DNA of 55,386 bases from Azospirillum sp. 51_20 (GTDB lineage: Bacteria > Verrucomicrobiota > Kiritimatiellia > RFP12 > UBA1067), in contig CAVCAF010000001.1 in the NCBI GenBank assembly GCA_963600185.1, positions 1 to 55,386 of the forward strand. The letters run 5' to 3'. Positions 4,172-41,529 of this stretch are shown here, piece after piece. Made by a program: the position numbers and the translations under genes. How positions within the stretch are numbered: position 1 is the first letter of the stretch; each line of letters opens with the position of its first letter. The notes beneath the pieces were generated by a model, which made no database searches, was not told the origin of the DNA, and saw only the letters and a program-made list of their open reading frames with translations.

Positions 4172-6147
4172 TGGCAGAGCTTGAGGCTAGCCGCGCACGG
4201 ATGCGCGAACTCTGCGCCCAGTTAAATGCCGCGTCCGCGGCATACTATAATGGGCAAGCGGAGTTGATGTCCGATCACGAATGGGACGCGCTCTTTGACG
4301 AACTCAAGAAGCTTGAGCAAGATACGGGAATTATCCTCCCCGAGTCGCCGGTCCAGCATGTTAGTGCCGATTCGCTCGTGGGACGCAAGGAGCGGCACGA
4401 ATTCGCCGCGCTTTCCCTCGCGAAGACGAAGAGCATTGCCGAAGTCGCGAAATGGGCTGAGGGACGCCCCATTTGGATTTCTTGGAAGCTCGATGGCTTA
4501 ACGCTCGTCGTCACCTATGATAATGGGCTATTAACGAAAGTCGTCACCCGCGGCGACGGCACAATCGGGACGAATATTACCCATCTCGCGCCTGGCATTG
4601 AGGGCATCCCTCAGAAGATAAATGCGAAAGGGCACCTCGTCATCCGTGGTGAGGCGGTTATCTCTTATGCCGACTTTGAGGCGTTTTTGGCGACTTCGCG
4701 CGAAGAGTTCGCCAATCCCCGCAATCTAGCCTCGGGTTCACTCGCGCTAAAGGATGTAGAAGAATTAAAAGCGCGGCACTTGCGCTGGATTCCCTTTACG
4801 CTCGTTTATGCCGAAGATGCGTTGCTTTCGTGGGGCGCGCGGCGCGATTATTTAAAGTCCGTTGGCTTAGGTGCTGTAGATTGTGAGCGCGTGGAAAGCC
4901 CGACAATCGCCAATCTCGAGGCGGTTATTGCGCGTTGGACATCGCGCGTTGTGAACCGTGAGAATCCTTATCCCGTGGATGGACTCGTTGTGGTGTATGA
5001 TGATACCGCCTACGCGCAAACGGGATCCGTGACGGGACATCATGCGACGCGGGCAGGGCTCGCCTTTAAGTGGCAGGATGAAGAGGCAACGACGACACTT
5101 AAATATATTGAGTGGAGTTGCGCCGTAAGCGCGATTTCGCCTGTTGCCGTATTTGAGCCTGTCGCGCTTGAGGGAACCAGCGTCCGCCGCGCGAATCTTT
5201 GTAATATTTCCGAATGCGAACGCCTTGGTGTTGGCGATAAAGGGACGGAACTTGTCGTTATTAAGGCGAATAAGATTATCCCGAAGGTCGTTCGGGTGAC
5301 GCGCAAGGTTGGTGATTTTGCGCCGCCGAGTACCTGCCCTGTGTGCGGTGCGAAGACGGCGGTTGTGGAGTCCGCGACAGGCACACGTAAGTTGATTTGT
5401 ACAAATGCGGAGTGCCCCGCGCGGACACTCGCTAAGTTTATTCGCTTTGTCTCTAAAGACGGACTCGACATTGACGGGCTCGGCGGCGAAACACTCGCGA
5501 AGTTTGTGAATGAGGGTTGGCTCAAAACGCCTGCGGATATCCTTAGGTTAGACAAGCACGCGGATGAAATTGCCGCGCTGGAAGGCTTTGGCGAAAAGAG
5601 TGCGCAGAATATTTGCGCGGCATTAGCGGCGGCGAAAAAGCGCGAGGCAGTAAACTTTCTTGTCGCGCTCTCGATTCCGCTGTGCGGGAGGGATGTTGCG
5701 AAGAAGCTTCTCGCAGATGTCGGGTCGGTAAAAGAACTTGTAGAAAAGGCACGCATGGCATCGCCCGATGCATTCGCTTCGATTGACGGGATTGGCCCTG
5801 CCAAGAGCGCGGCATTTGTGGGGTGGATGCAGTCCGCCCCAAATGCCGCGCTAGTCGATGATTTATTAGGTGAACTTGAGCTTACGATGCCGCCGAAGGT
5901 GACGGCGGGGGCTTGTGCGGGGCTTACATTCGTTATTACAGGCGACCTCGTGGGCTACGCTAATCGCGATATGTTGAAAGCCAAAATAGAGTCCCTTGGC
6001 GGCAAAGTCGCGGGGTCTGTCTCGGGCAAAACGGACTTTTTAATCAATAATGATGCCCAGTCAAGCTCCTCAAAGAACAAAAAAGCCCAAGCACTCGGCG
6101 TACCCATCCTAACAGAAAAAGATTTCGAAATGCGATTCGGTACTTGA
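4171..6147 (+). CDS. ligA: NAD-dependent DNA ligase
   Basis: KLDG is the adenylation lysine motif. A four-Cys zinc finger (CPVCG...C..AECP), HhH repeats and a C-terminal BRCT-like domain (FVITGDL...GGKV) are present, and the 658-aa length fits. Confidence 0.95.
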   Translation: MAELEASRARMRELCAQLNAASAAYYNGQAELMSDHEWDALFDELKKLEQDTGIILPESPVQHVSADSLVGRKERHEFAALSLAKTKSIAEVAKWAEGRPIWISWKLDGLTLVVTYDNGLLTKVVTRGDGTIGTNITHLAPGIEGIPQKINAKGHLVIRGEAVISYADFEAFLATSREEFANPRNLASGSLALKDVEELKARHLRWIPFTLVYAEDALLSWGARRDYLKSVGLGAVDCERVESPTIANLEAVIARWTSRVVNRENPYPVDGLVVVYDDTAYAQTGSVTGHHATRAGLAFKWQDEEATTTLKYIEWSCAVSAISPVAVFEPVALEGTSVRRANLCNISECERLGVGDKGTELVVIKANKIIPKVVRVTRKVGDFAPPSTCPVCGAKTAVVESATGTRKLICTNAECPARTLAKFIRFVSKDGLDIDGLGGETLAKFVNEGWLKTPADILRLDKHADEIAALEGFGEKSAQNICAALAAAKKREAVNFLVALSIPLCGRDVAKKLLADVGSVKELVEKARMASPDAFASIDGIGPAKSAAFVGWMQSAPNAALVDDLLGELELTMPPKVTAGACAGLTFVITGDLVGYANRDMLKAKIESLGGKVAGSVSGKTDFLINNDAQSSSSKNKKAQALGVPILTEKDFEMRFGT

Positions 6148-6174
6148 CTTTTCACCCCAAAAAATTGTACAATA
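6144..6174 (+). promoter_or_regulatory. candidate sigma70 promoter (TTGACT-N19-TACAAT)
   Basis: TTGACT lies at 6144-6149 and TACAAT at 6169-6174, preceded by TG. The spacer is long, so confidence is only moderate. AAAGGA lies upstream of the ATG at 6210. Confidence 0.35.
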
Positions 6175-6209
6175 TTAGGCAGATTTGTCCAGCAAAGGAA
6201 ACGAAAAAT

Positions 6210-6914
6210 ATGAAAAATACAGTAAAGTACGGTTTGGCGGCTCTCGCGCTCGCGTCAGTTTCGCCTATTTTCGCTCAGGAACAAGAGTCCGAAACGGTCG
6301 GCTGGACGCCTATCGCTTTCGGTATCGCCACGCCCGTTCAGCTCCCTTGGGGCATGAACATGTGGGATGTCTTTGGGTTAGACCTTAATCTAATCTATTC
6401 TGACGCGCCCTTGATGTATGGTCTTGATATTGGTGGTTTAGCCGCGTTGACGCGCGGAGATATGCGCGGCGTTCAGGTCTCGGGGCTCGGCAATATCGCG
6501 CTCGCGGATGTCTACGGTCTTCGTGCTACGATTGGCGTTAACTACGCGTGGGACGGCGAAGTCTATGGCGCTGATTTAGGTATGGTTGGTATTACGCGTA
6601 AGTTCGCGGGTCTCAATGTTGAGTTCATCGGTAGCTACCATGAAGAGTTCTGCGGTCTTGAAGTAGCGCTCATCGGCAACATCGTCCGCGGCGAAGCGAC
6701 AGGTGCACAGGTCGCGGGGCTTGCTAACTACGCGCAAAAGGCGAGTGGCGCTCAAGTCGCGATTGGCTTTAATATGACCGAAGTTCTTAATGGCGCACAA
6801 ATTTCGCTCGTTAACTATGCGCGTGAGTGTCCCGCGGGCTTCCAGATTGGTCTCATCAATATTATTATTGATAACAAGATCAAGGTCCTGCCTATCGTTA
6901 ACGGCTACTTCTGA
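6210..6914 (+). CDS. secreted repeat protein (Gly/Asn-rich approx 20-aa repeats, G.Q.(A/S)G..N type)
   Basis: I trimmed this to the ATG at 6210. The signal peptide is MKNTVKYGLAALALASVSPIFAQ. Internal repeats include GVQVSGLGNIA, GAQVAGLANYA, GAQVAIGFNM, GAQISLVNYA and GFQIGLINII. Confidence 0.6.
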   Translation: MKNTVKYGLAALALASVSPIFAQEQESETVGWTPIAFGIATPVQLPWGMNMWDVFGLDLNLIYSDAPLMYGLDIGGLAALTRGDMRGVQVSGLGNIALADVYGLRATIGVNYAWDGEVYGADLGMVGITRKFAGLNVEFIGSYHEEFCGLEVALIGNIVRGEATGAQVAGLANYAQKASGAQVAIGFNMTEVLNGAQISLVNYARECPAGFQIGLINIIIDNKIKVLPIVNGYF

Positions 6915-6927
6915 TATTGGTTGAAGC

Positions 6928-7920
6928 GTGAAGAACTCGCAATTTCTTAAGAAGCCGACGGCGGGGGCAACGAAAGCCCCCGTACGCGCAGAAAAAAGGC
7001 ATGGGCTAGGGCGCGGACTTGATTCGCTCATTGCGCCTAAGGCTAGTGCCGCGTCTCCCGTAGCGTCTGCCGCGCCAGCCTTGCGTGTGCCGTCAGTCGC
7101 GCGCAATGAGGTTTCCTTTGAACTCCCCATAAACGAGATCGCGCGTAGCCCTTATCAGCCGCGCCGCGACTTCAAAGAAGGGGAGTTAAAGGAACTCGCG
7201 GAGTCTCTTAAGAATAACGGGCTCGTCCAACCCCCAACCGTCCGCAAGAACGCGGCAGGTAAGTGGGAGTTAATCGCGGGTGAGCGTCGCCTTCGTGCGG
7301 CGCAACTCGCGGGTTGGCAGCGTATTCAGGTTGTCGTTAAGAATGTGGATGACCTGACCGCCGCCGCGATGACGACGACGGAAAATCTTCAGCGTGAAGA
7401 CCTGAACCCAATCGAAGAGGCGGCGAGCTATAAGACCTTGCAAGACCAATTTGGGCTAACCCAGCAAGAAGTCGCCGCGCGGGTCGGGAAGGGACGCGCC
7501 ACCGTCGCGAATGCCGTCCGTCTCTTAGAGTTGCCAGAGGAAGTTAAGGCGCTTATCCAAAGCGGACTTCTTTCGTCCGGGCACGCGAAAGTGCTTCTCT
7601 CGGTTGAGGATGAGAAGCATCGTATACTTCTCGCGCGTGATAGCGTTAATGAACAGTTGACCGTTAGAGCCTTGGAGAAGAGGATCGCGCGGCTTAGCGA
7701 GCCTATTAAGGAAAAGAAGAAGGGCGAAAATGATTTGCCCGATGGCTATGTTCGTGCGCTCTGTGATAAATTACGTAAGCACCTCGGGTGCGCCGTCCGG
7801 TTAACAAGCGGGGTTACCCACGCTAATGGCAAGCACTCCAAAGGCGTTCTTGAGATTGATTTCTTTGATAATGATGAGCTAGATCGTATTTTGCGCATGA
7901 TAGGCGTAGAGGTCGATTGA
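6928..7920 (+). CDS. parB: chromosome partitioning protein ParB/Spo0J
   Basis: GRGLDSLI, the ParB box LIAGERRLRAAQLAG and an HTH (QQEVAARVGKGRATVANAVRLL) are present. The start is GTG. Confidence 0.9.
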   Translation: MKNSQFLKKPTAGATKAPVRAEKRHGLGRGLDSLIAPKASAASPVASAAPALRVPSVARNEVSFELPINEIARSPYQPRRDFKEGELKELAESLKNNGLVQPPTVRKNAAGKWELIAGERRLRAAQLAGWQRIQVVVKNVDDLTAAAMTTTENLQREDLNPIEEAASYKTLQDQFGLTQQEVAARVGKGRATVANAVRLLELPEEVKALIQSGLLSSGHAKVLLSVEDEKHRILLARDSVNEQLTVRALEKRIARLSEPIKEKKKGENDLPDGYVRALCDKLRKHLGCAVRLTSGVTHANGKHSKGVLEIDFFDNDELDRILRMIGVEVD

Positions 7921-7923
7921 GGT

Positions 7924-8814
7924 ATGATTGGTAGTGTTTGTTTTCTAGCAGCTTCTCTTGTGTTTTCGCCAGCAGAGGCGAAAGTCGCGTATAATGTCGC
8001 GGCGGATTTAGTTGAGAATTGTACGCCGCGCGACGCGGGTACATTCGGGTCAAGCCGTGCCGCGTATCGTCTTTTGGACGCGATTAGTTCAACGGGTGCG
8101 GACGCTACCCTCGACCGCTTTAAGGTTATTACCCCGCGCGGCGAAAAGACCATGATTAATATTGAGTCCGCGTTCGTTGCCTCGGATGACGCGGAATGGA
8201 TTGTCTTTCTCTCTCACTACGATACAAAGATGGGAGTTGCCTGCCCAGGCGCAGATGATGGCGCGAGTACTTCGGGCTTATTAGTCGCGCTTGCCGATCT
8301 CCTCTACAAGGAGCGTCCCACTAATTGTAATATACTTCTCGCGTGGCTCGATGGCGAGGAGAGTATGGTTGCCTACGGCAAGGATGACGGACTTTGGGGG
8401 TCGCGGCATTTAGCCGAGAAACTTAAGGATCGCCGCGCTAAGGTGCGTGCCGTTTTTTGTCTTGATATGCTGGGCGGCAAAGACCTCGTTGTCGCCGTCC
8501 CTAAGAATGGAAATGCCGCCTTGCGGCGCGTCGTCCAAAAAGTAGCGCGGCATTTAGGTAAGGAAGATCGTGTTAAACTCGTCGGGGATAGCATTACCGA
8601 CGACCATGTCCCTTTTCATGAGGCGGGGTTTCGCGCTGTTGACTTAATCGGGATGTGCTCTGCGCGTCCGCTCCCTTATTGGCATACGCCCGAGGACACG
8701 ATGAAGAACATTTCGGAGGAGTCGCTACTTTTCGCGGGGGAACTCGCCGTTGCGCTACTGAATGGGCTTACACCCGAGGAAGAAAAAACGGCGGCATCCT
8801 CGCCAACAAAATGA
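7924..8814 (+). CDS. M28 family zinc peptidase (aminopeptidase/glutaminyl-cyclase-like), secreted
   Basis: There is a signal peptide. SHYDTK...[10 protein letters not shown]...WLDGEE...DMLG...DDHVPF are the M28 metal-ligand motifs. Confidence 0.8.
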
Positions 8815-8837
8815 CTTTATTTAAGGAGATTCAAAAC

Positions 8838-10454
<1,617 letters not shown>

Positions 10455-10478: not shown

Positions 10479-10520
10479 GCCGCGGCAAGAATCTCCTTCT
10501 CATGCCGCGGCACTTTTTAT
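10479..10520 (+). terminator. intrinsic terminator of pgi
   Basis: GCCGCGGC (10479-10486) and GCCGCGGC (10504-10511) form an 8-bp GC stem with a 17-nt loop, followed by ACTTTTTAT. Confidence 0.7.
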
Positions 10521-10600: not shown

Positions 10601-10738
10601 CCTTCAAGAGACCGCGGTCTCAGCACCTTGAGACCGCGGTCACTCGACCCTGAGACCGCGGTCTCTTGCCCGATAGACCGCGGTCTCCAAGCCAACAGAC
10701 CGCGGTCTCTAAGCCTATAGACCGCGGTCTCTTGAAGG
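10601..10738. repeat. 22-bp-periodic array (6 units) of the palindrome GAGACCGCGGTCTC with 8-nt variable spacers
   Basis: Units start at 10608, 10630, 10652, 10674, 10696 and 10718. The array is bracketed by CCTTCAAGAGACC and GGTCTCTTGAAGG. Positions 10606-10687 are identical to 40128-40209. Confidence 0.95.
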
Positions 10739-10832: not shown

Positions 10833-10861
10833 TGTACTTCTCACCCCAAATATGGTATAAT
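10833..10861 (+). promoter_or_regulatory. sigma70-type promoter (TGTACT-N17-TATAAT, extended TATGGTATAAT)
   Basis: TATGGTATAAT lies at 10851-10861. The same 11-mer precedes both tRNA genes. Confidence 0.65.
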
Positions 10862-10867
10862 TTAGGG

Positions 10868-11143
10868 TGTTCGGACGGCGGATAAAGCAGGAAAGCGTCC
10901 GAATTGATAGGCCAAGAGTATGCTTAAGTGGCAAAGTGCCGCGCTCCGCTCTTTAAGGTCGTGTAATGATTTAGCGTCAACGCTAACAAGTCGTTCTGCA
11001 GAAATACTGGTACTATTTCAACAGGTGAACGGCATGAGAGTGATGATGCGCCCTTTGGGCGTGTTATCTTATTGTGTATTCACCTATGCCTGTACCAGGG
11101 CTACTGCAGAGTGCATGAGAAGATGATGCGCTCTTTTCTTTTG
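10868..11143 (+). ncRNA. candidate structured ncRNA or long regulatory leader (approx 275 nt, unidentified class)
   Basis: A strong promoter lies upstream and a terminator at 11108-11143. Internal hairpins include TTCGGACG (10870-10877) with CGTCCGAA (10896-10903), and AGGTGAA with TTCACCT. The only ORF (68 aa) has atypical codons and no RBS. Confidence 0.35.
11108..11143 (+). terminator. intrinsic terminator
   Basis: AGAGTGC (11108-11114) pairs with GCGCTCT (11128-11134), giving a 7-bp stem with one G-U pair and a 13-nt loop. It is followed by TTTCTTTTG. Confidence 0.5.
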
Positions 11144-11196
11144 CATTGAATGGGTTCGGCGGCGAACTACTAGCGCAGAACCTGGAGAGAAAGAAG

Positions 11197-12018
11197 ATGG
11201 CAGAAGAAAGTAAGGCAGTGGAAGGTCGGCTCTTGCCTGTTTTGATGACGGCGAGCGTCGATACGCGCGGCATGAAATGTGCGCGTTTTGCCGCGGAGGA
11301 GCGGGAGAAGATGTATATTCGCGCCGTCCGTTATTACCTCGACACGATCTGCCGCGATCCGCGGCAAAAGGTTGTTTTTTGCGACAATTCGGGCTGGGAT
11401 CTCGCCTCCTTTCGTGCGAAGGTGGGGCGTGGGGCGGAGCGTATTGAGTGGCTGTCACTGGACCCAAACGACTTCGACATCTCGCGCGGCAAGGGCTATA
11501 ACGAGATGATTCTTATGCGGCAGGCACTTGAGCGCTCGCCGGCTATTCGTGCGGCAGGTGCATTCTTTAAAGTGACGGGGCGCTACCCGATCTACAATCT
11601 TGGCTACTTCGTGAAGAAGGCTTCAAAGGCAATTTATGCGCACGGCAAGAAGTGGTATTGCGATGTTAAGGATCATCCGATTTATGAATGGCTCCATCTT
11701 GGCTGGAACGGACACTCCCTTGAGTGTCGCCTCTTTGGGGTGACGAACGACTTCTTCTGTGAGAAGCTAGTTCCGTTGACGGAGGAGTGCAATGACGCGG
11801 AGGGTAAAGAGCTGGAAGGGGTCTTACTCCGCGGCTTAAAACGGATGAGCTTAGAGGGCATAGTGACGCGCTTCAAGCGTGAGCCGCACTTTGGGGGCGT
11901 GGCTGGACATTACATTCCTTCCATCGCGTGGAGTGAAGATCAGGACTGCTTCAAGGAAAAGTTTAAGCGTGCACTCGGCAACTTCATCCGCATCTTCATG
12001 CCTTGGCTGAAGTTCTAA
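11197..12018 (+). CDS. hypothetical protein (possibly a sugar-transferase-like alpha/beta protein)
   Basis: I trimmed ORF 11146..12018 to the ATG at 11197, which lies 7 nt after GGAGAG. I recognise no diagnostic motif. The VFCDNSGWDL segment is reminiscent of GT-A-like proteins, but that is unproven. Confidence 0.55.
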   Translation: MAEESKAVEGRLLPVLMTASVDTRGMKCARFAAEEREKMYIRAVRYYLDTICRDPRQKVVFCDNSGWDLASFRAKVGRGAERIEWLSLDPNDFDISRGKGYNEMILMRQALERSPAIRAAGAFFKVTGRYPIYNLGYFVKKASKAIYAHGKKWYCDVKDHPIYEWLHLGWNGHSLECRLFGVTNDFFCEKLVPLTEECNDAEGKELEGVLLRGLKRMSLEGIVTRFKREPHFGGVAGHYIPSIAWSEDQDCFKEKFKRALGNFIRIFMPWLKF

Positions 12019-23101: not shown

Positions 23102-24108
23102 TATACGACGCTTTTACATTCTTTAATGAATTAGACTTACTGGAGATTCGGCTTAATACGCTCGCCTCCGTAGTTGATAAGTTCGTAATAGCCGAAGCGA
23201 CGCGCACCCACCGCGGCAAACCCAAGCAACTTTTGTTTGAAGCTAACAAATCGCGCTTTAGTGCGTTTCTTCCGAAGATTATCTACATTAAGGTAGACGA
23301 TCTACTCTCAGAAGAAGAGATAAATAAAGACCCCTATAATCTTGCTTGGGTGAATGAGAATCGTCAGCGGAATGCCCTTAAGCGTGGTTTAATAGAGGCG
23401 CGCGCGAATGATATAATTTTGCTGTCCGATTTGGATGAGATACCGCGCCCCGAAATAGTTGCGCAATTGGAGTCCGTCCTTGATGGAAGTACACGCGGCG
23501 TACGGTTTAGGATGTCCGCTTATTACTATTATCTAAACTATCTTAATTATACAAAACCCGTTTGGGAAATGGGCACATTTGCCGCGCGCTACAGGGTGTT
23601 TGGCGATAATGCCTATCTCAGCCGAACACTTATGGGGCGCTTCACACCTGAGTCTGAAAATCGCGGCGCTACTATGCAACGGCTCCGCTTTATGCCTGCG
23701 GATAGGGACTTGCCGCACGCGGGTTGGCATTTCTCGTACTTGGGAGGCATAGAGGCGATTGAGAATAAATTGCGGTCTTTCTCACATTCTGAGTTTAGTG
23801 CGATACCGCGTCCTGTTTTAGAGCAAAGTATCCGTAAGGGGCGCGATCCATTTGGACGCGGGGAGATGTTTTTTGGCGAGGTGATAGACGATAGCTTCCC
23901 ACGGTATGTGAGAGAAAATCAAGATAAACTTGCCGCCTTAATTTTTAAGGTGGACGCGGACTATCTCGCGCGGACAGCATTCCCGCGGCGGATAGCGAAG
24001 TTAAGGGGGCGCTTGCATACTTTTCTTGTGCGTATAATCCCACAAAAGTGGGTGCCGTCAATATTGCGTGTGCGCGAAGCCTTGCTTAAAAAGTTAGGTA
24101 GGCTATGA
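23098..24108 (+). CDS. glycosyltransferase family 17-like (GnT-III-like) protein
   Basis: The N-terminus MIYDAFTFFNELDLLEIRLNTL...VDKFVIAEATRTH..KPK and the SDLDEIP motif are typical of bacterial GT17 homologues. Confidence 0.75.
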   Translation: MIYDAFTFFNELDLLEIRLNTLASVVDKFVIAEATRTHRGKPKQLLFEANKSRFSAFLPKIIYIKVDDLLSEEEINKDPYNLAWVNENRQRNALKRGLIEARANDIILLSDLDEIPRPEIVAQLESVLDGSTRGVRFRMSAYYYYLNYLNYTKPVWEMGTFAARYRVFGDNAYLSRTLMGRFTPESENRGATMQRLRFMPADRDLPHAGWHFSYLGGIEAIENKLRSFSHSEFSAIPRPVLEQSIRKGRDPFGRGEMFFGEVIDDSFPRYVRENQDKLAALIFKVDADYLARTAFPRRIAKLRGRLHTFLVRIIPQKWVPSILRVREALLKKLGRL

Positions 24109-25394
24109 CCCCAAGTTGCCATAGACCTGTTAAGGAGCGGATGACGCGGCGGTGTCCGTCACATGATTATTCGGTGCGCGGCGTTTATATGATTACGACC
24201 CAGCTCGCGGTGCGGGAGCCGAAGTTGGGTACGCTTGAGCCGATTCCGTGCGGGGAATGGTGCGTGAGGCCGAGTGCGCTTGGCTGGAAGGTTCTTGCTT
24301 GCTGGGAGGCTATCCCTAAACACTGGCCGCAGGTTAAACTTATTGCCCACCAACTCATGCCTGACCACTTTCATGGGCTTTTATTTGTGAAGGAAGATTT
24401 ACCAATCGTCTCGGGACGGCAGAAGGTACTTGGGGATATCATGCGCGGCTTTAAGGCGGGGTGCCGCGAAGTTGGTTGGCAGGCGGGCTTTACGGACTCC
24501 CTCCTCAAGCGCGAAGGGCAACTCGCACAACTCAGGCGCTACATCGCCGATAATCCGCGGCGGTTAGCCGAGAAGCGGCGACATAAGGCGTATTTTAAGG
24601 TCGTAGAAGATTTGGCAATAGAGTTGGGCGGGGGCGTATGCGGTTTGTTTGCGGGGCTCGGGAATGCCGCGCTCGCGAATAAAGTGCCGCGGGTTTATGT
24701 GCAGTGTTCGCGCAAGGACTTCGCATATAAACATACGCGCCTTGAGAGTGGCAATTGGCGCATTGAGCGCAACGAGAAAGGCGCGGCACTTGTTGACTTT
24801 GAAACGCCTACTTTTAAAGAGAAAGCGGCGCAGTTTTTAGAAGCTGTAAAGAAGGGCGCGGTGCTGGTGAGCCCCTGTATCTCGCATGGCGAGAAAGAAA
24901 TCATACGCCGCGCATTTGAGGCGGGCGGTAGTGTAATTTGTCTGCGAAATAAGGGTTTTGGTAAACTAGAGAAACCCATGGGCAAGATGTTTGACCTCTG
25001 TGCCTCGGGGCGACTCTTATTGCTCGCGCCAAAGAATTGGCTCTATACAATGAGTAAAAAGCCAATAAGCCGCGAAGACGCGCTTGTATTAAATACGCTC
25101 ACCCAATTACTCGCGGACAGTGAGGTCGTGGTTAATTATAAGGGTCGGGTACCCAATGGGCTTGGGGCTTTGTGTGCCCAAGCGGTAGATAGCCCTATGT
25201 TAGAGGCGATAATAAATAGCGCCATTTCTGGCGCTAAACCTAACGCCCCCACACCGCCAAGTGACCTGCCCCGCGTATCGCCGCCGTTAACTCAAGCTCA
25301 AACGCGCGTAAACGAGGCTAAAGCCCCGCCCCACCCCCGTGTTGTGCCGTTAGGTTCTGCCGCGGAAACGCGGCAGTTAGGAGCCTTCGTATGA
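24105..25394 (+). CDS. RayT/IS200-like (COG1943, HUH Y1-transposase fold) domain protein with an approx 260-aa C-terminal extension
   Basis: LMPDHFHGLLFV is the HUH motif, alongside WQAGFTDSLL and RRYIADNPRRL. The C-terminal part (GAVLVSPCISHGEKEIIRRAFEAGGSVICLRNKGFG) looks DprA/SLOG-Rossmann-like by eye. The last approx 20 codons run through a REP-like hairpin. Confidence 0.65.
   Translation: MTPSCHRPVKERMTRRCPSHDYSVRGVYMITTQLAVREPKLGTLEPIPCGEWCVRPSALGWKVLACWEAIPKHWPQVKLIAHQLMPDHFHGLLFVKEDLPIVSGRQKVLGDIMRGFKAGCREVGWQAGFTDSLLKREGQLAQLRRYIADNPRRLAEKRRHKAYFKVVEDLAIELGGGVCGLFAGLGNAALANKVPRVYVQCSRKDFAYKHTRLESGNWRIERNEKGAALVDFETPTFKEKAAQFLEAVKKGAVLVSPCISHGEKEIIRRAFEAGGSVICLRNKGFGKLEKPMGKMFDLCASGRLLLLAPKNWLYTMSKKPISREDALVLNTLTQLLADSEVVVNYKGRVPNGLGALCAQAVDSPMLEAIINSAISGAKPNAPTPPSDLPRVSPPLTQAQTRVNEAKAPPHPRVVPLGSAAETRQLGAFV
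25313..25379. repeat. REP-like repeat copy A (CGAGGCTAAAG ... GTGCCGTTAGGTTCTGCCGCGGAAACGCGGCAGTTA)
   Basis: The hairpin CTGCCGCG-GAAA-CGCGGCAG lies at 25357-25376. It is near-identical to 28006-28041. Confidence 0.85.
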
Positions 25395-27847: not shown

Positions 27848-27926
27848 AAACTCGCCCCACGATACCATACGCGATTTTATTCGCCACGCTTTGGGCGACG
27901 TTAACTTTAACCCCAATGCGAGTTGC

Positions 27927-28041
27927 CGAGGCTAAAGTAGTGCCCTTACCTAGTGTAGTGCCGTTAGGTTCTGCTGCGTTTGAAGTTGCGACCTTACCCA
28001 GTGTCGCACCGTTAGGTTCTGCCGCGGAAACGCGGCAGTTA
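27927..28041. repeat. REP-like repeat copy B (two sub-units, the second carrying the hairpin)
   Basis: CGAGGCTAAAG lies at 27927. CCTTACC(T/C)AGTGT.G..CCGTTAGGTTCTGC occurs twice, about 46 nt apart. The hairpin CTGCCGCGGAAACGCGGCAG lies at 28019-28038. Confidence 0.85.
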
Positions 28042-28069
28042 AGGGCCTGCTTAAGGCGCGTGAGAGTAA

Positions 28070-28400: not shown

Positions 28401-28699
28401 GTGCGGAGAGGTGTCCGTCGGCGAGATCAAGATTTAAAATGCCATAATCGGTGACTAGGAGGCTCGTATTGCGCTTGGAAGGGTTCGGATGTGGGAGGAT
28501 ACACCCCAAAGCGAGGAGCCCCTAAAATCGAAAATTTTCGGGGTGTCTGGCGATTAGGCATTTTGGACGGATTTCGTCCGCGGCAAAATCGCGGCATTTC
28601 CGCGGCGTTTTGGAGGCTAAAAACCGTGCTTTTGGCAGTCAGGTTTCGGGCAAGTAAGCTAATAGCCCCAACTGTCCAACTGTAAAAATAACTAAAAAA

Positions 28700-28938
28700 A
28701 TGCTGTGTGCGTGTGTTTTGTGTGGGGCTGTTAGGCTGTTAACTGTTAAAAAACAACAAAAAATGGCTGTGTGTGTTGTTTTTGTGGATGCTTGGGTGTT
28801 TGTCGTAGGTGAAAGGAAGGTTAGTTTCTCGTTTTCGTTTTCGCTCGGCTAGGGGGTGAGGGGGGTCACAACAACACACACACAACATAAGTGTCGTTTT
28901 GGACAACAACAGTTGGACAAAACACACGCACACAACAT
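28700..28938. repeat. long imperfect inverted repeat, GT-rich arm and CA-rich arm
   Basis: TGTGTGCGTGTGTTTTGT (28705-28722) is exactly complementary to ACAAAACACACGCACACA (28917-28934). CTGTGTGTGTTGTTTTTGTGG (28767-28787) roughly matches CACAACAACACACACACAAC (28867-28886). Confidence 0.85.
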
Positions 28939-29050
28939 TTCTTTCTATTTCTTTTTTATTTTCTTCTTCTTGCTTTCTCTTTAAAGGGGTCTGGGGGAAC
29001 CTTTCTCTTTCATTCGTCTTCTTTGTTTTTTTCTTTTTCTTTCTTGCCCT
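28939..29050 (+). repeat. approx 110-nt polypyrimidine (CT-rich) low-complexity tract
   Basis: TTTCTTTCTATTTCTTTTTTATTTTCTTCTTCTTGCTTTCTCTTT ... CTTTCTCTTTCATTCGTCTTCTTTGTTTTTTTCTTTTTCTTTCTTGCCCTC. Confidence 0.85.
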
Positions 29051-29295
29051 CAAAAAGCGTCTTCTCTAGCCCCTCCAGAGTGCTCGCCTCGGGGTCGCTT
29101 GGGGTGGCTTTGGGGATTCAGAAGGGTGGCTTAGGGTGCCTTCGGGCGGGCGCGGCGATTTCCGCGGCGAACCTTTTGGGTAGCGTTAAGGGGTGAAAAA
29201 GGGTGCTCCAAAAAAAGTTTTAGGGGCTTCAAAAATTGGCGTTTGGAAACTTAAAATGAAAAATGCAGTTGCCGAAAATTAGTTGAAAAATCCTA

Positions 29296-29325
29296 TTGAC
29301 CCGGCACACCGAAATATGGTATAAT
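29296..29325 (+). promoter_or_regulatory. tRNA-Val promoter (TTGACC-N18-TATAAT, TATGGTATAAT) with upstream A-tract region
   Basis: The -35 lies at 29296-29301 and the -10 at 29320-29325. Multiple A5-7 tracts lie between 29196 and 29290. Confidence 0.75.
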
Positions 29326-29341
29326 ATTCGCCAATTAGCAA

Positions 29342-29418
29342 GGGCTATTAGCTCAGTTGGTTAGAGCGCTTCCTTGACATGGAAGAGGTCAGTAGTTCGA
29401 ATCTACTATAGCCCACCA
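29342..29418 (+). tRNA. tRNA-Val (anticodon GAC), CCA encoded
   Basis: The cloverleaf was folded by hand. The acceptor stem is GGGCTAT/ATAGCCC, the D-arm is GCTC-AGTTGGTTA-GAGC, the anticodon stem is CTTCC/GGAAG with loop TTGACAT, and the T-arm is AGTAG-TTCGAAT-CTACT. Confidence 0.92.
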
Positions 29419-29445
29419 TTCCCCACCCGAAACTCCAACCCTAAC

Positions 29446-29512
29446 CTTGTTGTTGCCTTAGTGCCATGCTCGTTGTTGCCCTCGTGCCATTGCCTTGTTG
29501 TTGCCCTGTCCC
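29446..29512. repeat. three tandem 23-24-nt units (C.TGTTGTTGCC.T.GTGCCAT)
   Basis: The units start at about 29446, 29469 and 29493, immediately 3' of tRNA-Val. Confidence 0.75.
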
Positions 29513-29612
29513 AACTATAACCTAGTACAACGCTAAGCGCGGGGGTGGTCACGCGAGGGGAGTGAAAATCTTTGATTTTAGTGAGATTCTTCTCCGAAAG
29601 AGGCTCTATTTT

Positions 29613-29621
29613 TGATATAAT
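29613..29621 (+). promoter_or_regulatory. extended -10 promoter TGATATAAT
   Basis: The hexamer lies at 29616-29621. An ATG follows 7 nt downstream (29629) and opens a 9-codon mini-ORF that ends in an ATGA overlap with the next gene. Confidence 0.5.
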
Positions 29622-29654
29622 ATAAGGGATGAAAAGTACGAGAGAGAAAGAAGG

Positions 29655-30656
29655 ATGAAAAAGGCGACAAGATTCCGTGCGGTCGTCCTCGCGGGCGGCA
29701 GTGGCGAGCGGTTTTGGCCGCTTTCGACGAAAGAGAAGCCCAAGCAATTTTTGAATGTGTTTGGGGGCGTGAGTCTTTTGCGTCAGAGTGTGACGCGGCT
29801 AGAGAAGTTGGCGACGCCTGAGGGACTCTATGTCATCACGGCGAAGGATCTCGTAGGGTTAACGCGCAAGGAGCTCCCCGAAGTGCCACCGCGGCAGATT
29901 GTGGGCGAGCCGTTCCGTCGTGATACGGGAGCTGCGATTGCACTGGGGACGGGACTTGCGGGCGCGGCAAATGATGATGTCATCGGCTTTTTCGCGAGCG
30001 ACCATCTTATCCGTAATGAGCATGCCTTTCTCGCGACAGTCAAAAAGGCGATTCGCCTCGCCGCGGCAAAAGAGAAGATTGTCGTTATTGGGATACCCCC
30101 AACATGGGGATCGCCTGCGTTTGGGTATGTGGACCCAAAGACGGGTGCATTCGTTGAGAAGCCCGACGCGAAGAAGGCGAAGCAATATTTAAAGAAGGGC
30201 TACTTGTGGAATGCGGGGCTTTTCATTGCGCGTGCAAGCGTCTTTCGTGCCGCGATCGCGGCGTATGCGCCCGCGTTGAAGCCTTTAACGGAAAGTGCCG
30301 CGTTTTCTGCTGCACGCCTCGCGCGACTGTATGAGCCGTTGCCGCGGATTTCGTTTGATTATGCGGTGATGGAGAAGTCCGTTAATGTCGCGGTTATTCG
30401 TGGGGACTTCGGCTGGGACGATGTGGGCGGCTTTCAGGCGTTCGATCGCTACTTCCCGCACGACAAGAAGGGCAACGTGCGCGAGGGGCCTTGCCGCGTC
30501 GTTTCCTCGGCGGGGAATATTTGCGTCGTGAGAGGGGCGCCCATTTCGCTTTTGGGAGTCTCCAATCTCGTCGTCATAACAACGCCCCAAGGCGTGCTCG
30601 TCGCGAATAAGCGTCACCTCTCGGATATGAAGAAACTCTTTCAGACGACCTCGTAA
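29655..30656 (+). CDS. mannose-1-phosphate guanylyltransferase (nucleotidyltransferase domain only)
   Basis: AVVLAGGSGERFWPLS is the N-terminal signature, and FASDH and WNAGLF motifs are present. At 333 aa it has no PMI/cupin domain. Confidence 0.8.
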   Translation: MKKATRFRAVVLAGGSGERFWPLSTKEKPKQFLNVFGGVSLLRQSVTRLEKLATPEGLYVITAKDLVGLTRKELPEVPPRQIVGEPFRRDTGAAIALGTGLAGAANDDVIGFFASDHLIRNEHAFLATVKKAIRLAAAKEKIVVIGIPPTWGSPAFGYVDPKTGAFVEKPDAKKAKQYLKKGYLWNAGLFIARASVFRAAIAAYAPALKPLTESAAFSAARLARLYEPLPRISFDYAVMEKSVNVAVIRGDFGWDDVGGFQAFDRYFPHDKKGNVREGPCRVVSSAGNICVVRGAPISLLGVSNLVVITTPQGVLVANKRHLSDMKKLFQTTS

Positions 30657-38317: not shown

Positions 38318-39496
38318 GTGACTATTTGGATAGAGAATCCGTTTGATAATCTGCCGCGGGAAGGTGCGCGGGCGATGCGTTATTGGCTCATGGCTAGGGC
38401 ATTTGCCGCGGCGGGGCATCGGGTTCTTTATTTGACGAGTTCCTTTAGCCACACGGGTAAAGTGCCGCGGTCTTTGCCCGAAATCTTTACCGAGGAGGGT
38501 ATAGAAGTTAGGCTTATCCCGACCGTGCCCTATAAGAAGAATATAAGTCTTGGGCGAATCCTTAGCCACCGCGCTTATGCGAAAAAGTGGCAAGAGCTGG
38601 CACTGGGGGCAAAAGTGCCGCGTCCGGACGCAATTATTGTCTCGACTCCGCCCCTCGCGACAGGCAAAGTCGCGCGGCACTTAGCGCGGCACTTCGGTGC
38701 GAAACTCGTCGTGGATATCCAAGACGCCTGGCCCGAGACTTTCTATCGCCTTTTACATCCTATTATAAGAGGAGTGGCGCCACTCCTTTTTGCGCCGATG
38801 TTAAGGGAAGTTAAACGGCTTTTGGGCGCGGCAGATTTGGTGACGGGGGTCTCGGCACGGTACATTGAGCGGGCGCGGAACTTTGGCATTTCGGGAGGCA
38901 GGTTATTTTACCATGGTATTACCCTCGCGAATTGGGGTACTAGGTCAATTCCAGCCCCCGAAAACGCCCCCCTACTCGTTTATATTGGGGGACTAGGCGA
39001 AAGTTATGACCTAGGCACTGTTTTACGGGCAGTTAAGGACTTACCGCGCGTGAAACTCGCCCTCGCGGGGGCGGGAAAGGGTGAGGCGGCACTAAAAGCC
39101 TATGTGAAGGCGCACAATTTAGAAGAAAGGGTATCCTTCCGCGGCTATTTGGGTGCGGATGAACTCAGTAGACTCCTCGAAAGTGCCGCGGTCGGGATTA
39201 TCCCTCTCGCGGAAAGTAGTTGGGTGGGAGTCCCCTATAAGCTCGCGGACTATGCCGCGGCAGGTCTCGCCGTGTTAAGTTCACTAAAAGGCGAAACGTA
39301 CGCACTTTTGGCGAAATATGCCGCGGGCGAGACTTATGAAGTCGGGTCAGCGGAGTCCTTCACCGCGGCACTTAAGCGCCTTTTGCCGCACTTAGAAGCC
39401 GCACAAAAGGGTGCGCGGCACTTGGCGGAAGCCGAGTTCGATGCCGCACTGATATACCCGCGGTATGTCGCGGCAGTTGAGGAGGTTGTAAAATGA
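38318..39496 (+). CDS. GT-B fold glycosyltransferase (family 4-like)
   Basis: The C-terminal half shows G.G...L....... and PY-type motifs. The start is GTG. This is a by-eye call. Confidence 0.65.
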   Translation: MTIWIENPFDNLPREGARAMRYWLMARAFAAAGHRVLYLTSSFSHTGKVPRSLPEIFTEEGIEVRLIPTVPYKKNISLGRILSHRAYAKKWQELALGAKVPRPDAIIVSTPPLATGKVARHLARHFGAKLVVDIQDAWPETFYRLLHPIIRGVAPLLFAPMLREVKRLLGAADLVTGVSARYIERARNFGISGGRLFYHGITLANWGTRSIPAPENAPLLVYIGGLGESYDLGTVLRAVKDLPRVKLALAGAGKGEAALKAYVKAHNLEERVSFRGYLGADELSRLLESAAVGIIPLAESSWVGVPYKLADYAAAGLAVLSSLKGETYALLAKYAAGETYEVGSAESFTAALKRLLPHLEAAQKGARHLAEAEFDAALIYPRYVAAVEEVVK

Positions 39497-40005
39497 GCCT
39501 TGAGGAGTTCGACGAATACTTTATGGCCATGGCGCTCAGGGAAGCAGAAAAGGCGGCGACGGACGGCGAGGTGCCGACGGGGTGCGTCATCGTGGAGCTA
39601 CCCGAGGGGGCAATAGACCCGACAGGAAAGAAGCCGTTTGATTTGATGTGTGCCGAGGCGCGTATCTTGGGGCGTGCCCATAACCAAACTGAGCAACTCA
39701 ATGACGCGACAGCCCACGCGGAAATGCTCGCCCTAAGCGCGGCATTTCAGGCGAAAGGCAACTGGCGACTCACCAATACGCGGCTTTATGTGACGAAAGA
39801 GCCCTGTCCAATGTGCGCGGGGGCAATAGTGCTCGCACGCGTTTCGGCAGTCATCTGGGGCGTGTCGGACCCTAAGCGGGGAGGGGGGACGGTCTTTAAA
39901 ATCTTTGACCATCCCGGCATCAATCATCATCCGCAAATCAAGACGGGGGTACTTGAGGAACCCTCGCGGCAAATACTCCAAACCTTCTTCAAGTCCCGCC
40001 GCTAG
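39493..40005 (+). CDS. tadA: tRNA adenosine(34) deaminase
   Basis: HAEMLAL and PCPMCAGA are the CDA zinc motifs. Confidence 0.9.
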   Translation: MSLEEFDEYFMAMALREAEKAATDGEVPTGCVIVELPEGAIDPTGKKPFDLMCAEARILGRAHNQTEQLNDATAHAEMLALSAAFQAKGNWRLTNTRLYVTKEPCPMCAGAIVLARVSAVIWGVSDPKRGGGTVFKIFDHPGINHHPQIKTGVLEEPSRQILQTFFKSRR

Positions 40006-40116
40006 TCTCTCGGGGTAGCTGAGACACTGTCTCGGGGTGATGTTTCTACTGTCTCGGGGTGGCGCTCGCAGTGTCTCGGGGTGCCCCTCCCAGTGTCTCG
40101 TCCTAGGTGAGATACT
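40003..40116. repeat. 22-bp-periodic array of A(C/G)TGTCTCGGGGTG units with 8-nt variable spacers
   Basis: Units start at 40003, 40025, 40047, 40069 and 40091, with a degenerate unit at 40113. The first unit overlaps the tadA stop codon. Confidence 0.9.
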
Positions 40117-40129
40117 GCGCGGAGGCTAA

Positions 40130-40256
40130 GAGACCGCGGTCTCAGCACCTTGAGACCGCGGTCACTCGACCCTGAGACCGCGGTCTCTTGCCCGATAGAC
40201 CGCGGTCTCTCACCCTTGAGACCGCGGTCTCTGAGCCTATAGACCGCGGTCTCTTA
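40130..40256. repeat. 22-bp-periodic array (6 units) of the palindrome GAGACCGCGGTCTC
   Basis: Units start at 40130, 40152, 40174, 40196, 40218 and 40240. The first four units plus their spacers are identical to the 10.6-kb locus. Confidence 0.95.
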
Positions 40257-40308
40257 AAGGGCTACTAAGGAGACCCCCCACAATCTTCCAAGTAGATGTA
40301 GGTTTCTC

Positions 40309-40337
40309 TTGTACTTGGACGCAAAATATGGTATCAT
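40309..40337 (+). promoter_or_regulatory. sigma70 promoter (TTGTAC-N17-TATCAT, TATGGTATCAT)
   Basis: The motif lies at 40327-40337, about 75 nt after the palindrome array and 32 nt before the fprA-like ATG. Confidence 0.6.
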
Positions 40338-40368: not shown

Positions 40369-41529
40369 ATGTCCGACTTACTAGATGATATAGCGTCCGT
40401 TGGCGTTAACGACACGGGAATCACCCTCTTCGAGGGGCAATTTGCCGTCTCGAAAGGGATGTCCTATAACTCCTATATAATAAAGGACGAGAAGATTACG
40501 GTAATGGATACCGTGGACGCGCACTTTGGTGAGGCGTGGCTGGGGAACATCCGCCGCGAAATCGGTGCGCAGGAAGTCGCCTACCTCGTCGTCCAGCATA
40601 TGGAACCCGACCACTCGGCGAACATTGCCGCGTTCGCGGCGGCGTATCCGTCGGCGACGATTGTCGCTTCCGCCGCGGCATTCGTGATGATGAAGAACTA
40701 CTTTGGCACAGACTTCGCCGATCGTCGCCTTATAATAAAGGAGGGGGACACCCTCAACACGGGGCACCACCTCCTCAAGTTCGTCGCCGCGCCCATGGTG
40801 CATTGGCCCGAGGTCATGGTCACTTTTGATGAGGCGACAGGCGTTCTCTTTTCCGCGGACGCTTTCGGCAAGTTCGGTGCGACAAATATTCCTGATGATG
40901 AGGGTTGGGATTGCGAAGCGCGGCGTTACTACTTCGGTATTGTCGGCAAGTTCGGGGTGCAGGTGCAAGCGCTCCTCGCAAAAGCCGCGAAGTTGCCCAT
41001 TTCGCGCATCTATCCCCTGCATGGACCTATCTTCACGACGGCGGAGGAGATTCAGCACGCCCTTGAGCTTTACACGACTTGGTCGCGGTATGAGGTGGAG
41101 ACTAAAGGGGTGTTCATCGCCTATACCTCCGTTTATGGCCATACCCAGCGCGTCGCCGAAGAGCTTGCGTCCCTTTTAACGGCGAAGGGCATTAAGGTCG
41201 CGAAGGCGGATCTCACGCGGGAGGATATGCACGAGGCGATTGAGGACGCGTTTCGGTATGGCACGCTTATTTTGGCGACGACCTCCTATAATAATGGGGT
41301 GTTCCCGAAAATGCGTGAGTTTATAGAGCACCTCTTGGAGCGCAACTACCAAAAGCGGTGCGTTGGGTTTATTGAGAATGGTTCGTGGGCACCCTGCGCG
41401 GCGAAGAAGATGCAGGAGATGTTTGCCGCGGCGAAAGAAATCACGCTTTTACCAACCACCGTCACGGTAAAAGGTGCCGCGTATAACCAAGCCGACCTCG
41501 AAAAGCTCGCGGAGGAGATCTCGGCGTGA
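40369..41529 (+). CDS. flavodiiron protein (FprA family, MBL fold plus flavodoxin)
   Basis: VVQHMEPDHS is the diiron motif, and a C-terminal flavodoxin-like domain is present. The ATG at 40369 lies 10 nt after AAGGAG. Confidence 0.85.
   Translation: MSDLLDDIASVGVNDTGITLFEGQFAVSKGMSYNSYIIKDEKITVMDTVDAHFGEAWLGNIRREIGAQEVAYLVVQHMEPDHSANIAAFAAAYPSATIVASAAAFVMMKNYFGTDFADRRLIIKEGDTLNTGHHLLKFVAAPMVHWPEVMVTFDEATGVLFSADAFGKFGATNIPDDEGWDCEARRYYFGIVGKFGVQVQALLAKAAKLPISRIYPLHGPIFTTAEEIQHALELYTTWSRYEVETKGVFIAYTSVYGHTQRVAEELASLLTAKGIKVAKADLTREDMHEAIEDAFRYGTLILATTSYNNGVFPKMREFIEHLLERNYQKRCVGFIENGSWAPCAAKKMQEMFAAAKEITLLPTTVTVKGAAYNQADLEKLAEEISA

Follow-up and report, generated by a model that had tools for sequence, protein, structure and literature searches.

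The intergenic region between a tadA-like deaminase gene and a flavodiiron (FprA-type) gene in a contig assigned to the Kiritimatiellia (Azospirillum sp. 51_20, GenBank contig CAVCAF010000001.1, positions 1 to 55,386; the whole 55,386-nt stretch is called the window below) contains a continuous array of short units phased at 22 bp. We favour, with moderate confidence, the reading that this array is one copy of a dispersed repeat family resembling the repetitive extragenic palindromes and bacterial interspersed mosaic elements (REP/BIME), or the BOX elements, of other bacteria; that the factor most likely to act on it is an HUH enzyme that recognises hairpins, of the type of the REP-associated tyrosine transposases (RAYT); and that any effect on fprA is generic. 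The parts of this reading differ in strength. That the array belongs to a dispersed family of hairpin-forming palindromic repeats we regard as very probable, while a link between a RAYT and the repeats, taken alone, is possible rather than probable. The literature and Rfam searches made here turned up no earlier description of the family. Its hosts are Kiritimatiellae of the gut or rumen, and a metagenome-assembled genome (MAG) of the Prevotellaceae carries related mixed arrays.

The array between tadA and fprA

The tadA-like gene (39493-40005, + strand) and the flavodiiron gene downstream (40369-41529, + strand) were both identified with Pfam, and the array between them was delimited by reading the sequence, with Tandem Repeats Finder (TRF) and with pattern searches. 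The array is a composite. Its proximal part (40004-40129, + strand; sequence reading and pattern search) consists of half-units of the form A(C/G)TGTCTCGGGGTG plus 8 nt. Three of these are conserved, with starts at 40026, 40048 and 40070 and exact TGTCTCGGGGTG at 40028, 40050 and 40072, and they are flanked by degenerate units near 40004, 40092 and 40114 (degenerate copies of the motif are found at 40006 and about 40094 in the pattern search). A first-pass annotation of this DNA had described five to six GTCTC half-units here; they are present, but only three are conserved, the rest being degenerate, and the starts lie 1 nt later than it gave. It had also placed the first unit over the tadA stop codon, and the TAG at 40003-40005 does abut or overlap the first degenerate unit.

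The distal part (40130-40253, + strand) contains six copies of the 14-bp palindrome (G/T)AGACCGCGGTC(T/A)C, with 8-nt spacers and a period of exactly 22 bp (palindrome starts at 40130, 40152, 40174, 40196, 40218 and 40240); we call this unit family A. The six palindromic units reported earlier upstream of fprA are recovered by both TRF and pattern searches. The two parts share one register. GTCTC cores fall at 40029 + 22n with an offset of 0 through 40249, in the proximal and palindromic parts alike, so that the phasing first noticed across the junction is exact except at 40117 (core absent), 40161 (GTCAC) and the first core at 40005, which is 2 nt off. When the window was searched for the 14-mer palindrome with at most two mismatches, 13 matches were found against 0.28 expected, and 12 of the 13 lie inside two arrays, this one and a sister array near pgi.

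The proximal half-unit was seen only at the tadA-fprA locus, here and on the corresponding contigs of two strains (L036 and L037). One GTCTCGGGGTGGCGC is also present at the end of a family-A array in L006, which suggests that the proximal units are a local expansion of the array end in 22-bp steps.

The sister array and the limits of the element

The sister array (10608-10731, + strand; sequence reading, TRF and pattern search) also comprises six family-A units. It follows the terminator (stem 10479-10487 / 10503-10511, T run 10514-10518) of the pgi gene (8655-10454, Pfam), and a -10 hexamer, TATAAT (10856-10861), comes 125 nt after it. Positions 40128-40209 are identical to 10606-10687, exactly the 82 nt noted at the outset, and this stretch is part of a 133-nt segment (40128-40260, + strand) that is 94% identical to 10606-10738. 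As the flanks of the two segments are unrelated, the match marks the boundaries of a repeat element. Two further observations of the first-pass annotation are borne out: both window arrays sit between a gene end and a promoter, and the unit and spacer sets are evolving, the arrays being non-random and changing by units and spacers.

Downstream of the sister array, a leader of about 280 nt (10862-11146) lies between the promoter at 10856 and an open reading frame (ORF) of 290 codons (11146-12018), whose product has no Pfam or NCBIfam match. The leader, earlier regarded as a candidate non-coding RNA, contains a terminator-like hairpin (11042-11068) and matches no Rfam family.

A dispersed family in related genomes

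To place the window arrays among relatives, one genome per species was scanned for two palindrome cores 22 bp apart, a strict and exact two-unit pattern. Family-A arrays of 2-9 units each occur at at least nine loci in MAG UBA740 and at least eight in MAG UBA6354. At two loci in a Prevotellaceae MAG, the family-A unit is mixed with other palindromes; the Bacteroidota identity of this MAG is supported by a PG1828-family lipoprotein encoded beside one of the arrays. The same scan also matched some unrelated 11-bp repeats in other phyla. A metagenome scan with four GTCTC at 22-nt spacing gave matches dominated by unrelated 22-bp satellites, with the family-A contigs L067 and L154 among the matches listed.

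Across 83 units, the 22-bp spacing holds without exception. Each position of the core AGACCGCGGTCT reaches at least 93% conservation, apart from position 8 with 86%, and the spacer follows a directional consensus, TTGCCCAA. The unit can be described as a palindrome of about 20 bp, CAAGAGACCGCGGTCTCTTG, plus two asymmetric bases. It is common to organisms whose orthologous proteins are just 68-76% identical; for example, identity is 68% between a gene of the window and the syntenic gene of 'Verrucomicrobia bacterium UBA740'. The closest named relatives of the FprA protein are from Kiritimatiellae MAGs.

Arrays usually have CAA at the start and TTG at the finish, often as CTTCAA...TTGAAG, and longer flank modules recur at several arrays in a subfamily-specific manner. 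Conserved terminal inverted repeats were not found around the arrays, only these subfamily-specific modules. Unit number differs between close relatives: one locus found in two genomes that are 95% identical there (L004 and L020) has nine units in the first and four in the second. Close strains of the window organism are present in two Logan assemblies, with FprA 98% identical; the samples of SRR13434617 and SRR19415656 hold such strains. Their tadA-side contigs carry the same proximal units, differ in the spacers and stop inside the first palindromic units, and their fprA-side contigs begin about 60 nt before fprA. Breakage of the strain contigs at the array is how a multi-copy repeat behaves, and assemblies repeatedly break within arrays. 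A comparison of the tadA-fprA intergenic region in relatives had been proposed as a check, and it shows that spacers vary between strains.

In the syntenic relative L031, whose neighbouring proteins are 73-95% identical to those of the window, the fprA promoter is preceded by another 22-bp hairpin array (L031 142-229), in which CCGTTGCGCCGGAACGG plus 5 nt occurs four times; we call this unit family B. Family B is absent from the window. It occurs in UBA740, UBA6354 and L067 as well, again at contig ends or assembly gaps (further sites are L067 31-101, L006 7613-7699 and L009 6983-7028). In about 220 kb of related loci, a period of 22 dominates the tandem repeats of at least 9 bp; as the loci had been chosen for carrying arrays of this kind, the count is biased.

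Families A, B and C had no match in viral contig scans, and the window arrays had no blastn match in PLSDB or INPHARED. Literature searches for 22-bp palindromic repeats in Verrucomicrobia, or for the motif, gave nothing relevant, and no published description of dispersed palindromic repeats in Kiritimatiellota was found.

These data suggest how the family may behave. Arrays would lengthen, shorten and trade units by whole multiples of 22 bp, through slippage, unequal recombination or gene conversion, and whole arrays would be copied from one intergenic site to another. The proximal GTCTC-GGGGTG units could represent 22-bp-step expansion or decay of one array end, overlapping the tadA terminator hairpin.

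Hairpins, bound DNA and RNA

In folding predictions, single strands of the array regions form very stable hairpins (z = -9.7 and -12.2). The first two proximal units form a predicted terminator-like hairpin, CTGAGAC-ACT-GTCTCGG (40019-40035, + strand), directly after the tadA stop codon and followed by a T-rich tail, GGTGATGTTTCT. Both window loci and 19 related loci were searched against Rfam 15 with gathering and E-value thresholds, and nothing was found at the arrays. Matches at threshold were two tRNAs in the window and a tRNA, a thiamine pyrophosphate (TPP) riboswitch and a glycine riboswitch in the related loci, all of them away from the arrays, where only sub-threshold hits of hairpin type were obtained.

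In the arrays of the Prevotellaceae MAG, adjacent 22-nt units differ in their 5-6-bp stems (AAGGA, TACGA, TCTCA/TGGGA, AGGAC/GTCTT, TTCCA and TGCAC) and share a YGYG centre, and G.T pairs occur on one strand only. What is kept is palindromy and spacing, not sequence. Varied stems with palindromy preserved favour recognition of a hairpin, as single-stranded DNA or as RNA, over recognition by one sequence-specific duplex-binding dimer. One of these mixed arrays, in L022, is adjoined just upstream by a large inverted repeat (1200-1440) made of 10-bp tandem repeats, with four copies of CAACCTCGCG facing their complement.

If the arrays were instead read as duplex DNA, each 14-bp palindrome would bind a protein dimer, and the 22-bp spacing (two helical turns) would line the dimers up in a nucleoprotein filament or wrapped complex. 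Such a complex, of the kind that lambda O forms on its ori iterons, would act as an insulator, a roadblock, a domain boundary or an upstream promoter element. On balance we consider this unlikely. It is supported by the near-invariant core with variable spacers, by the exact period without insertions or deletions and by the in-phase joining of different unit types. The two unrelated 22-bp arrays upstream of the same promoter in syntenic relatives also fit, as does the array in L018, which lies in the divergent promoter region of a tRNA and a TPP riboswitch and is probably untranscribed there. Further, the palindromic 22-bp arrays within O-like initiator genes of phage contigs are probably real iteron sets. 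However, one sequence-specific dimer could not read all the differing Prevotellaceae stems, some arrays lie between convergent genes, the distance to the promoter is not fixed, the copy number is unstable (nine versus four units) and no candidate binding protein was identified. Promoters of the form TGnTATAAT within 450 nt of arrays face outward in 12 cases and inward in one; this agrees with a promoter-linked complex, but any element situated in a long intergenic region would be expected to show such an excess.

The hairpins might also work at the RNA level. A multi-hairpin RNA, forming the 3' end of the tadA message or its own transcript, would then serve as a stabiliser, a terminator or a sponge for a protein that binds hairpins with YGYG loops; REPs in Escherichia coli mRNAs act as 3' stabilisers or terminators. 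There is no canonical terminator between tadA and the array, the first units supply a terminator-like hairpin and the predicted hairpins are very stable. In L022 and L024, moreover, the stems covary around a conserved CGCG/UGCG/CGUG loop with G.U pairs on one strand only, and the + strand folds better than the - strand; pair 1-14 is G-T in 34 cases versus A-C in 3 in the orientation with the C-rich spacer. Nevertheless, the array at 10608 is placed between the pgi terminator and the following promoter, that of L018 occupies a divergent promoter region, orientation relative to the flanking genes is inconsistent, and there is no Rfam family match, all hits being far below thresholds. The covariation is no proof of selection either, as template-switch mutation can also keep palindromes perfect. 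An RNA element is therefore decidedly unlikely as the main explanation.

Promoters, neighbouring genes and the question of a regulon

The fprA promoter (TTGTAC, 17 nt, TGgTATCAT; 40309-40337, + strand) conforms to the genome-wide promoter consensus and is preserved in L031 as TATGGTATCATAT. The motif TATGGTATAAT is the general strong-promoter consensus of this genome and is not specific to arrays. In the window, the consensus (C)GAAATATGGTATAAT, with an extended -10, is found at 180, 6158, 10850, 16057, 29310 and 40322, where it precedes both tRNAs and several operons; the AAATATGGTATAAT promoter likewise stands before tRNA-Thr, tRNA-Val and other units (180, 6158, 16057 and 29310). Occurrence ahead of tRNAs and other units marks the motif as a general consensus, and it is no evidence of a regulon.

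The arrays are intergenic throughout, and tandem, divergent and convergent contexts all occur. Tandem contexts include both window loci and L006, where the array is upstream of a promoter and glycine riboswitch; the L018 array, between a tRNA and a TPP riboswitch, is divergent; and the array in L020/L004, after an OmpR-type regulator gene, is convergent. Counts of the context types are approximate, because genes in the high-GC MAG loci were called with a heuristic based on GC content at third codon positions (GC3) that was only partly checked with Pfam. The neighbours are functionally unrelated, including an Na:Ala symporter with its glycine riboswitch, a TPP riboswitch, a tRNA, and genes for GH2, OmpR-type, EndoIII-like and ABC transporter proteins. 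From the array to the -10 element there are 92 nt at one window locus and 138 nt at the other, and this distance varies elsewhere too; array orientation shows no consistent relation to flanking promoters or genes.

The first-pass annotation had suggested that fprA and the 10.87-kb transcript share a regulon. This does not survive the comparison: the promoter is generic, the arrays are multi-locus, their neighbours are unrelated, distances vary and some contexts are convergent; between convergent genes there is no promoter for an array to regulate.

A specific version of the same idea is that the arrays are operators responding to O2 or NO stress, for example for a dimer of the CRP/FNR type on 5-4-5 palindromes, and that they control fprA and the unit downstream of 10856. 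The unit does share its 5-4-5 geometry with FNR-type sites, regulators of nitrosative stress typically target flavodiiron genes, and both window arrays precede promoters. Still, we find this very improbable. The genes beside other arrays are functionally unrelated, the promoter motif at both loci is generic, and L031 keeps the promoter but with a different repeat. Measured from the likely transcription starts, the centre of the last palindrome is about 97 and 143 nt upstream, so its position is not fixed, and six to nine sites of variable number are unlike an operator. Palindromes of a CRP/FNR-type operator would keep a fixed helical position to the promoters of a coherent regulon, and this identity was also rejected for the element in general, given the varying promoter distances, the heterogeneous flanking genes and the convergent contexts.

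A dedicated role in the regulation of fprA is thus unlikely. Under the REP-like reading that we favour, the effect on fprA would be generic, exerted by stable hairpins at the 3' end of tadA or by a barrier or insulator between two transcription units, with no dedicated O2/NO-responsive control.

A RAYT-like protein fused to a DprA-like domain

A candidate for the factor acting in trans is encoded in the window itself. The gene at 24105-25394 (+ strand) specifies a conserved 'hypothetical' protein of 429 aa with a RAYT/IS200-like HUH/Y1 domain in its N-terminal half and a DprA-like domain, and follows tatD and a GT17 gene in what looks like an operon. Searches with the protein sequence against Pfam and the PDB were negative; the RAYT-like domain is visible only through a sub-cutoff NCBIfam match and fold comparison. 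All 31 homologues (31/31) match NCBIfam REP_Tyr_transpos below its cutoff, and the HFH (residues 88-90) and YxxxNP (Y146, N150, P151) motifs are invariant among them. The AlphaFold model has a predicted local distance difference test (pLDDT) score of 81, and its top fold match in the PDB is 4ER8, the E. coli REP-associated tyrosine transposase with bound REP hairpin; the next matches are IS200/IS605 transposases (TnpA). The C-terminal half of the model resembles DprA. We suggest that the trans-acting factor is most likely a hairpin-recognising HUH enzyme of RAYT type, such as this RAYT-DprA fusion. Mobilisation of the repeats by the fusion protein, and any effect of the arrays on transcription, are inferences; the data themselves show the repeat family, its dispersal, variation in unit steps, the element boundaries, the hairpin potential and a RAYT-like gene.

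A second repeat family lies at the 3' end of this gene. It has a 48-nt unit, present in one copy at 25310-25391 and in two copies at 27924-28053, and then a hairpin, CTGCCGCGGAAACGCGGCAG. The first site extends over the C-terminal tail of the RAYT-like ORF, a tail of low confidence, and the second copy of the CTGCCGCGGAAACGCGGCAG-type hairpin repeat is 2.6 kb downstream of the gene. Three genes are enclosed by the two copies: one unknown, one DUF5672 gene and one RgpF-like gene.

A different protein partner, the ParB-family protein encoded at 6928-7920, could be proposed if the 14-bp palindromes were a lineage-specific equivalent of parS or the Noc-binding site (NBS), set in arrays like that of sopC. 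The ParB gene is 2.7 kb upstream of the first array and has no adjacent ParA gene, and the window lacks a canonical parS, even at three mismatches; NBS and parS are both palindromic, with lengths of 14-16 bp, and in F sopC sites of this kind are arrayed in tandem. Canonical parS is, in fact, absent both from the window and from all related loci retrieved. Even so, we consider this explanation very improbable. The family-A palindrome is unlike parS or NBS, other unit families with the same period exist, and the recognition helix (GKG-R...AN-A...LL-E...S-G-HA) resembles that of the parS-binding Myxococcus ParB (R, A, A, G), not that of Noc (Q, K, K, R), at the positions that reportedly set ParB/Noc specificity. 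As a separate observation on this gene, no ParA is encoded upstream of it, and the ORF before it (6144-6914) seems to encode a lipoprotein or repeat protein.

Weighing the favoured reading

Several results weigh against the view that the arrays are REP-like elements spread by a RAYT. Family-A units do not flank the RAYT-like gene, the nearest arrays being 13.4 and 14.7 kb away, and the gene is found widely and in synteny across Kiritimatiellae, also on contigs that carry no arrays. The link between RAYT and repeat is for these reasons circumstantial, and the RAYT-DprA gene looks like a domesticated host gene, as RAYTs do. The GTAG/CGTC tag of the two known REP superfamilies, and its complement, are missing from the 22-nt consensus. 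A search around the arrays for target-site duplications revealed no clear one. IS200/IS605-type elements show an orientation bias relative to GC skew, and the arrays, few as the data are, show none. Finally, the strict 22-bp period is common to unrelated units (family B and the mixed Prevotellaceae arrays), and at the fprA locus of the syntenic relative L031 the 22-bp array is a different one. Recurrence of the period across unrelated units and at the same locus fits selection on phasing, and thus a function, better than a purely selfish element.

This last point leads to a variant in which the 22-bp period is itself selected. Arrays of interchangeable units (families A, B, C and mixed) would be built and kept up by a domesticated RAYT-DprA protein, and a host factor would read them as boundary or insulator elements between genes. 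They would then constitute a host-adopted system, present in Kiritimatiellota and at least one Prevotellaceae genome and distinct from REP/BIME, iterons and CRISPR. We consider the variant quite unlikely, both as to the selected period and as to the host-adopted system that would follow from it.

Whichever holds, the combination of features is unusual: a rigid period of two helical turns across unrelated units, the in-phase fusion of unit types and the co-resident fusion of RAYT-like and DprA-like, ssDNA-binding domains. Dispersed palindromic repeats have been well studied in Proteobacteria. If protein and repeats are linked here, they would offer a tractable new pair of the REP/RAYT type, and with it a way to study how hairpin repeats spread and whether hosts use them as boundaries of transcription units. 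There is also a practical side, in that the arrays fragment metagenome assemblies of the group and could be taken for regulatory sites or mini-CRISPRs.

Other features of the window and related contigs

The window contains a long non-coding region (28437-29655) around tRNA-Val (29342-29418) that is dense in small tandem repeats, including a 23-nt repeat (29445-29507), and has a 28-nt inverted repeat (28694-28721 / 28917-28944). Palindromes of the AAAGTGCCGCGCGCGGCACTTT type recur at 2926, 10933, 19560, 32814 and 1234, and may be bidirectional terminator hairpins with a shared sequence. Among related contigs, a non-coding element of about 170 nt occurs in L067 (1-1000, in both orientations) and L003 (1-168). 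It is 88% identical between a contig of 53% GC and one of 61% GC, and may be an element like a miniature inverted-repeat transposable element (MITE), shared across genera.

Comparison with known systems

Lambda-type ori iterons, which make up the O-some, resemble the arrays: their dyad-symmetric sites, four to six in number, are spaced at about two helical turns. The window arrays are, by contrast, intergenic, multi-locus and chromosomal, among housekeeping genes and without an initiator gene. Origin iterons of a plasmid or phage, which would lie beside or within an initiator gene at a single locus per replicon and have an AT-rich unwinding region, were rejected as an identity for the window arrays, in view of the neighbours (tadA, fprA and pgi), the several loci and the lack of a match in the plasmid and phage collections. 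Phage contigs do contain 22-bp arrays of a different sequence, GTCTCACWGTGAGAC, inside lambda-O-like initiator genes (L161 3156-3260 and L172 4916-5003; also L183, L190, L195 and L188). These are preceded by 11-nt repeats and are probably ori iterons.

CRISPR arrays likewise have short palindromic repeats at regular spacing with variable spacers. In family A, however, the repeat is 14 nt and the spacer is 8 nt from a constrained consensus, as against CRISPR repeats of 23-47 nt and unique spacers of 21-72 nt. We rejected a CRISPR assignment on the grounds that spacers are shared between two loci and between genera, with near-identical arrays at two loci; no cas genes were found among the scanned genes.

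The BOX element of Streptococcus pneumoniae has the structure boxA - boxB(n) - boxC with a 45-bp internal unit. Like BOX, the family-A element is modular and intergenic, with an internal module repeated in tandem, in variable number, between recurrent ends (here CTTCAA...TTGAAG and the flank modules). The family-A unit, at 22 bp, is shorter than the 45-bp BOX unit and forms a palindrome of its own, the ends are short and heterogeneous, and there is no sequence relationship.

The closest known class is REP/BIME with its RAYTs, of which E. coli, Pseudomonas and Opitutus provide examples; a cognate RAYT gene typically has its REPs on either side. REPs in tandem, and REPs in the Verrucomicrobia/PVC group, including Opitutus, have been documented, and a GTAG/CGTC tag defines the two known superfamilies (PMC3733652). 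Family A differs from them in lacking a GTAG or CGTC tag and in being strictly head-to-tail with a fixed 22-bp period, whereas BIMEs alternate in orientation with variable linkers. Its arrays also occur in divergent promoter regions, and the RAYT-like gene here is fused to a DprA-like domain and unflanked by family A. The likenesses are that family-A units are short imperfect palindromes with stem-loop potential, as REPs of 20-40 bp are; that they are extragenic, in many dispersed copies, in tandem and with recurrent linker or flank modules; that their copy number varies between strains; and that the genome encodes a RAYT-like HUH/Y1 protein whose best fold match is the REP-bound transposase 4ER8.

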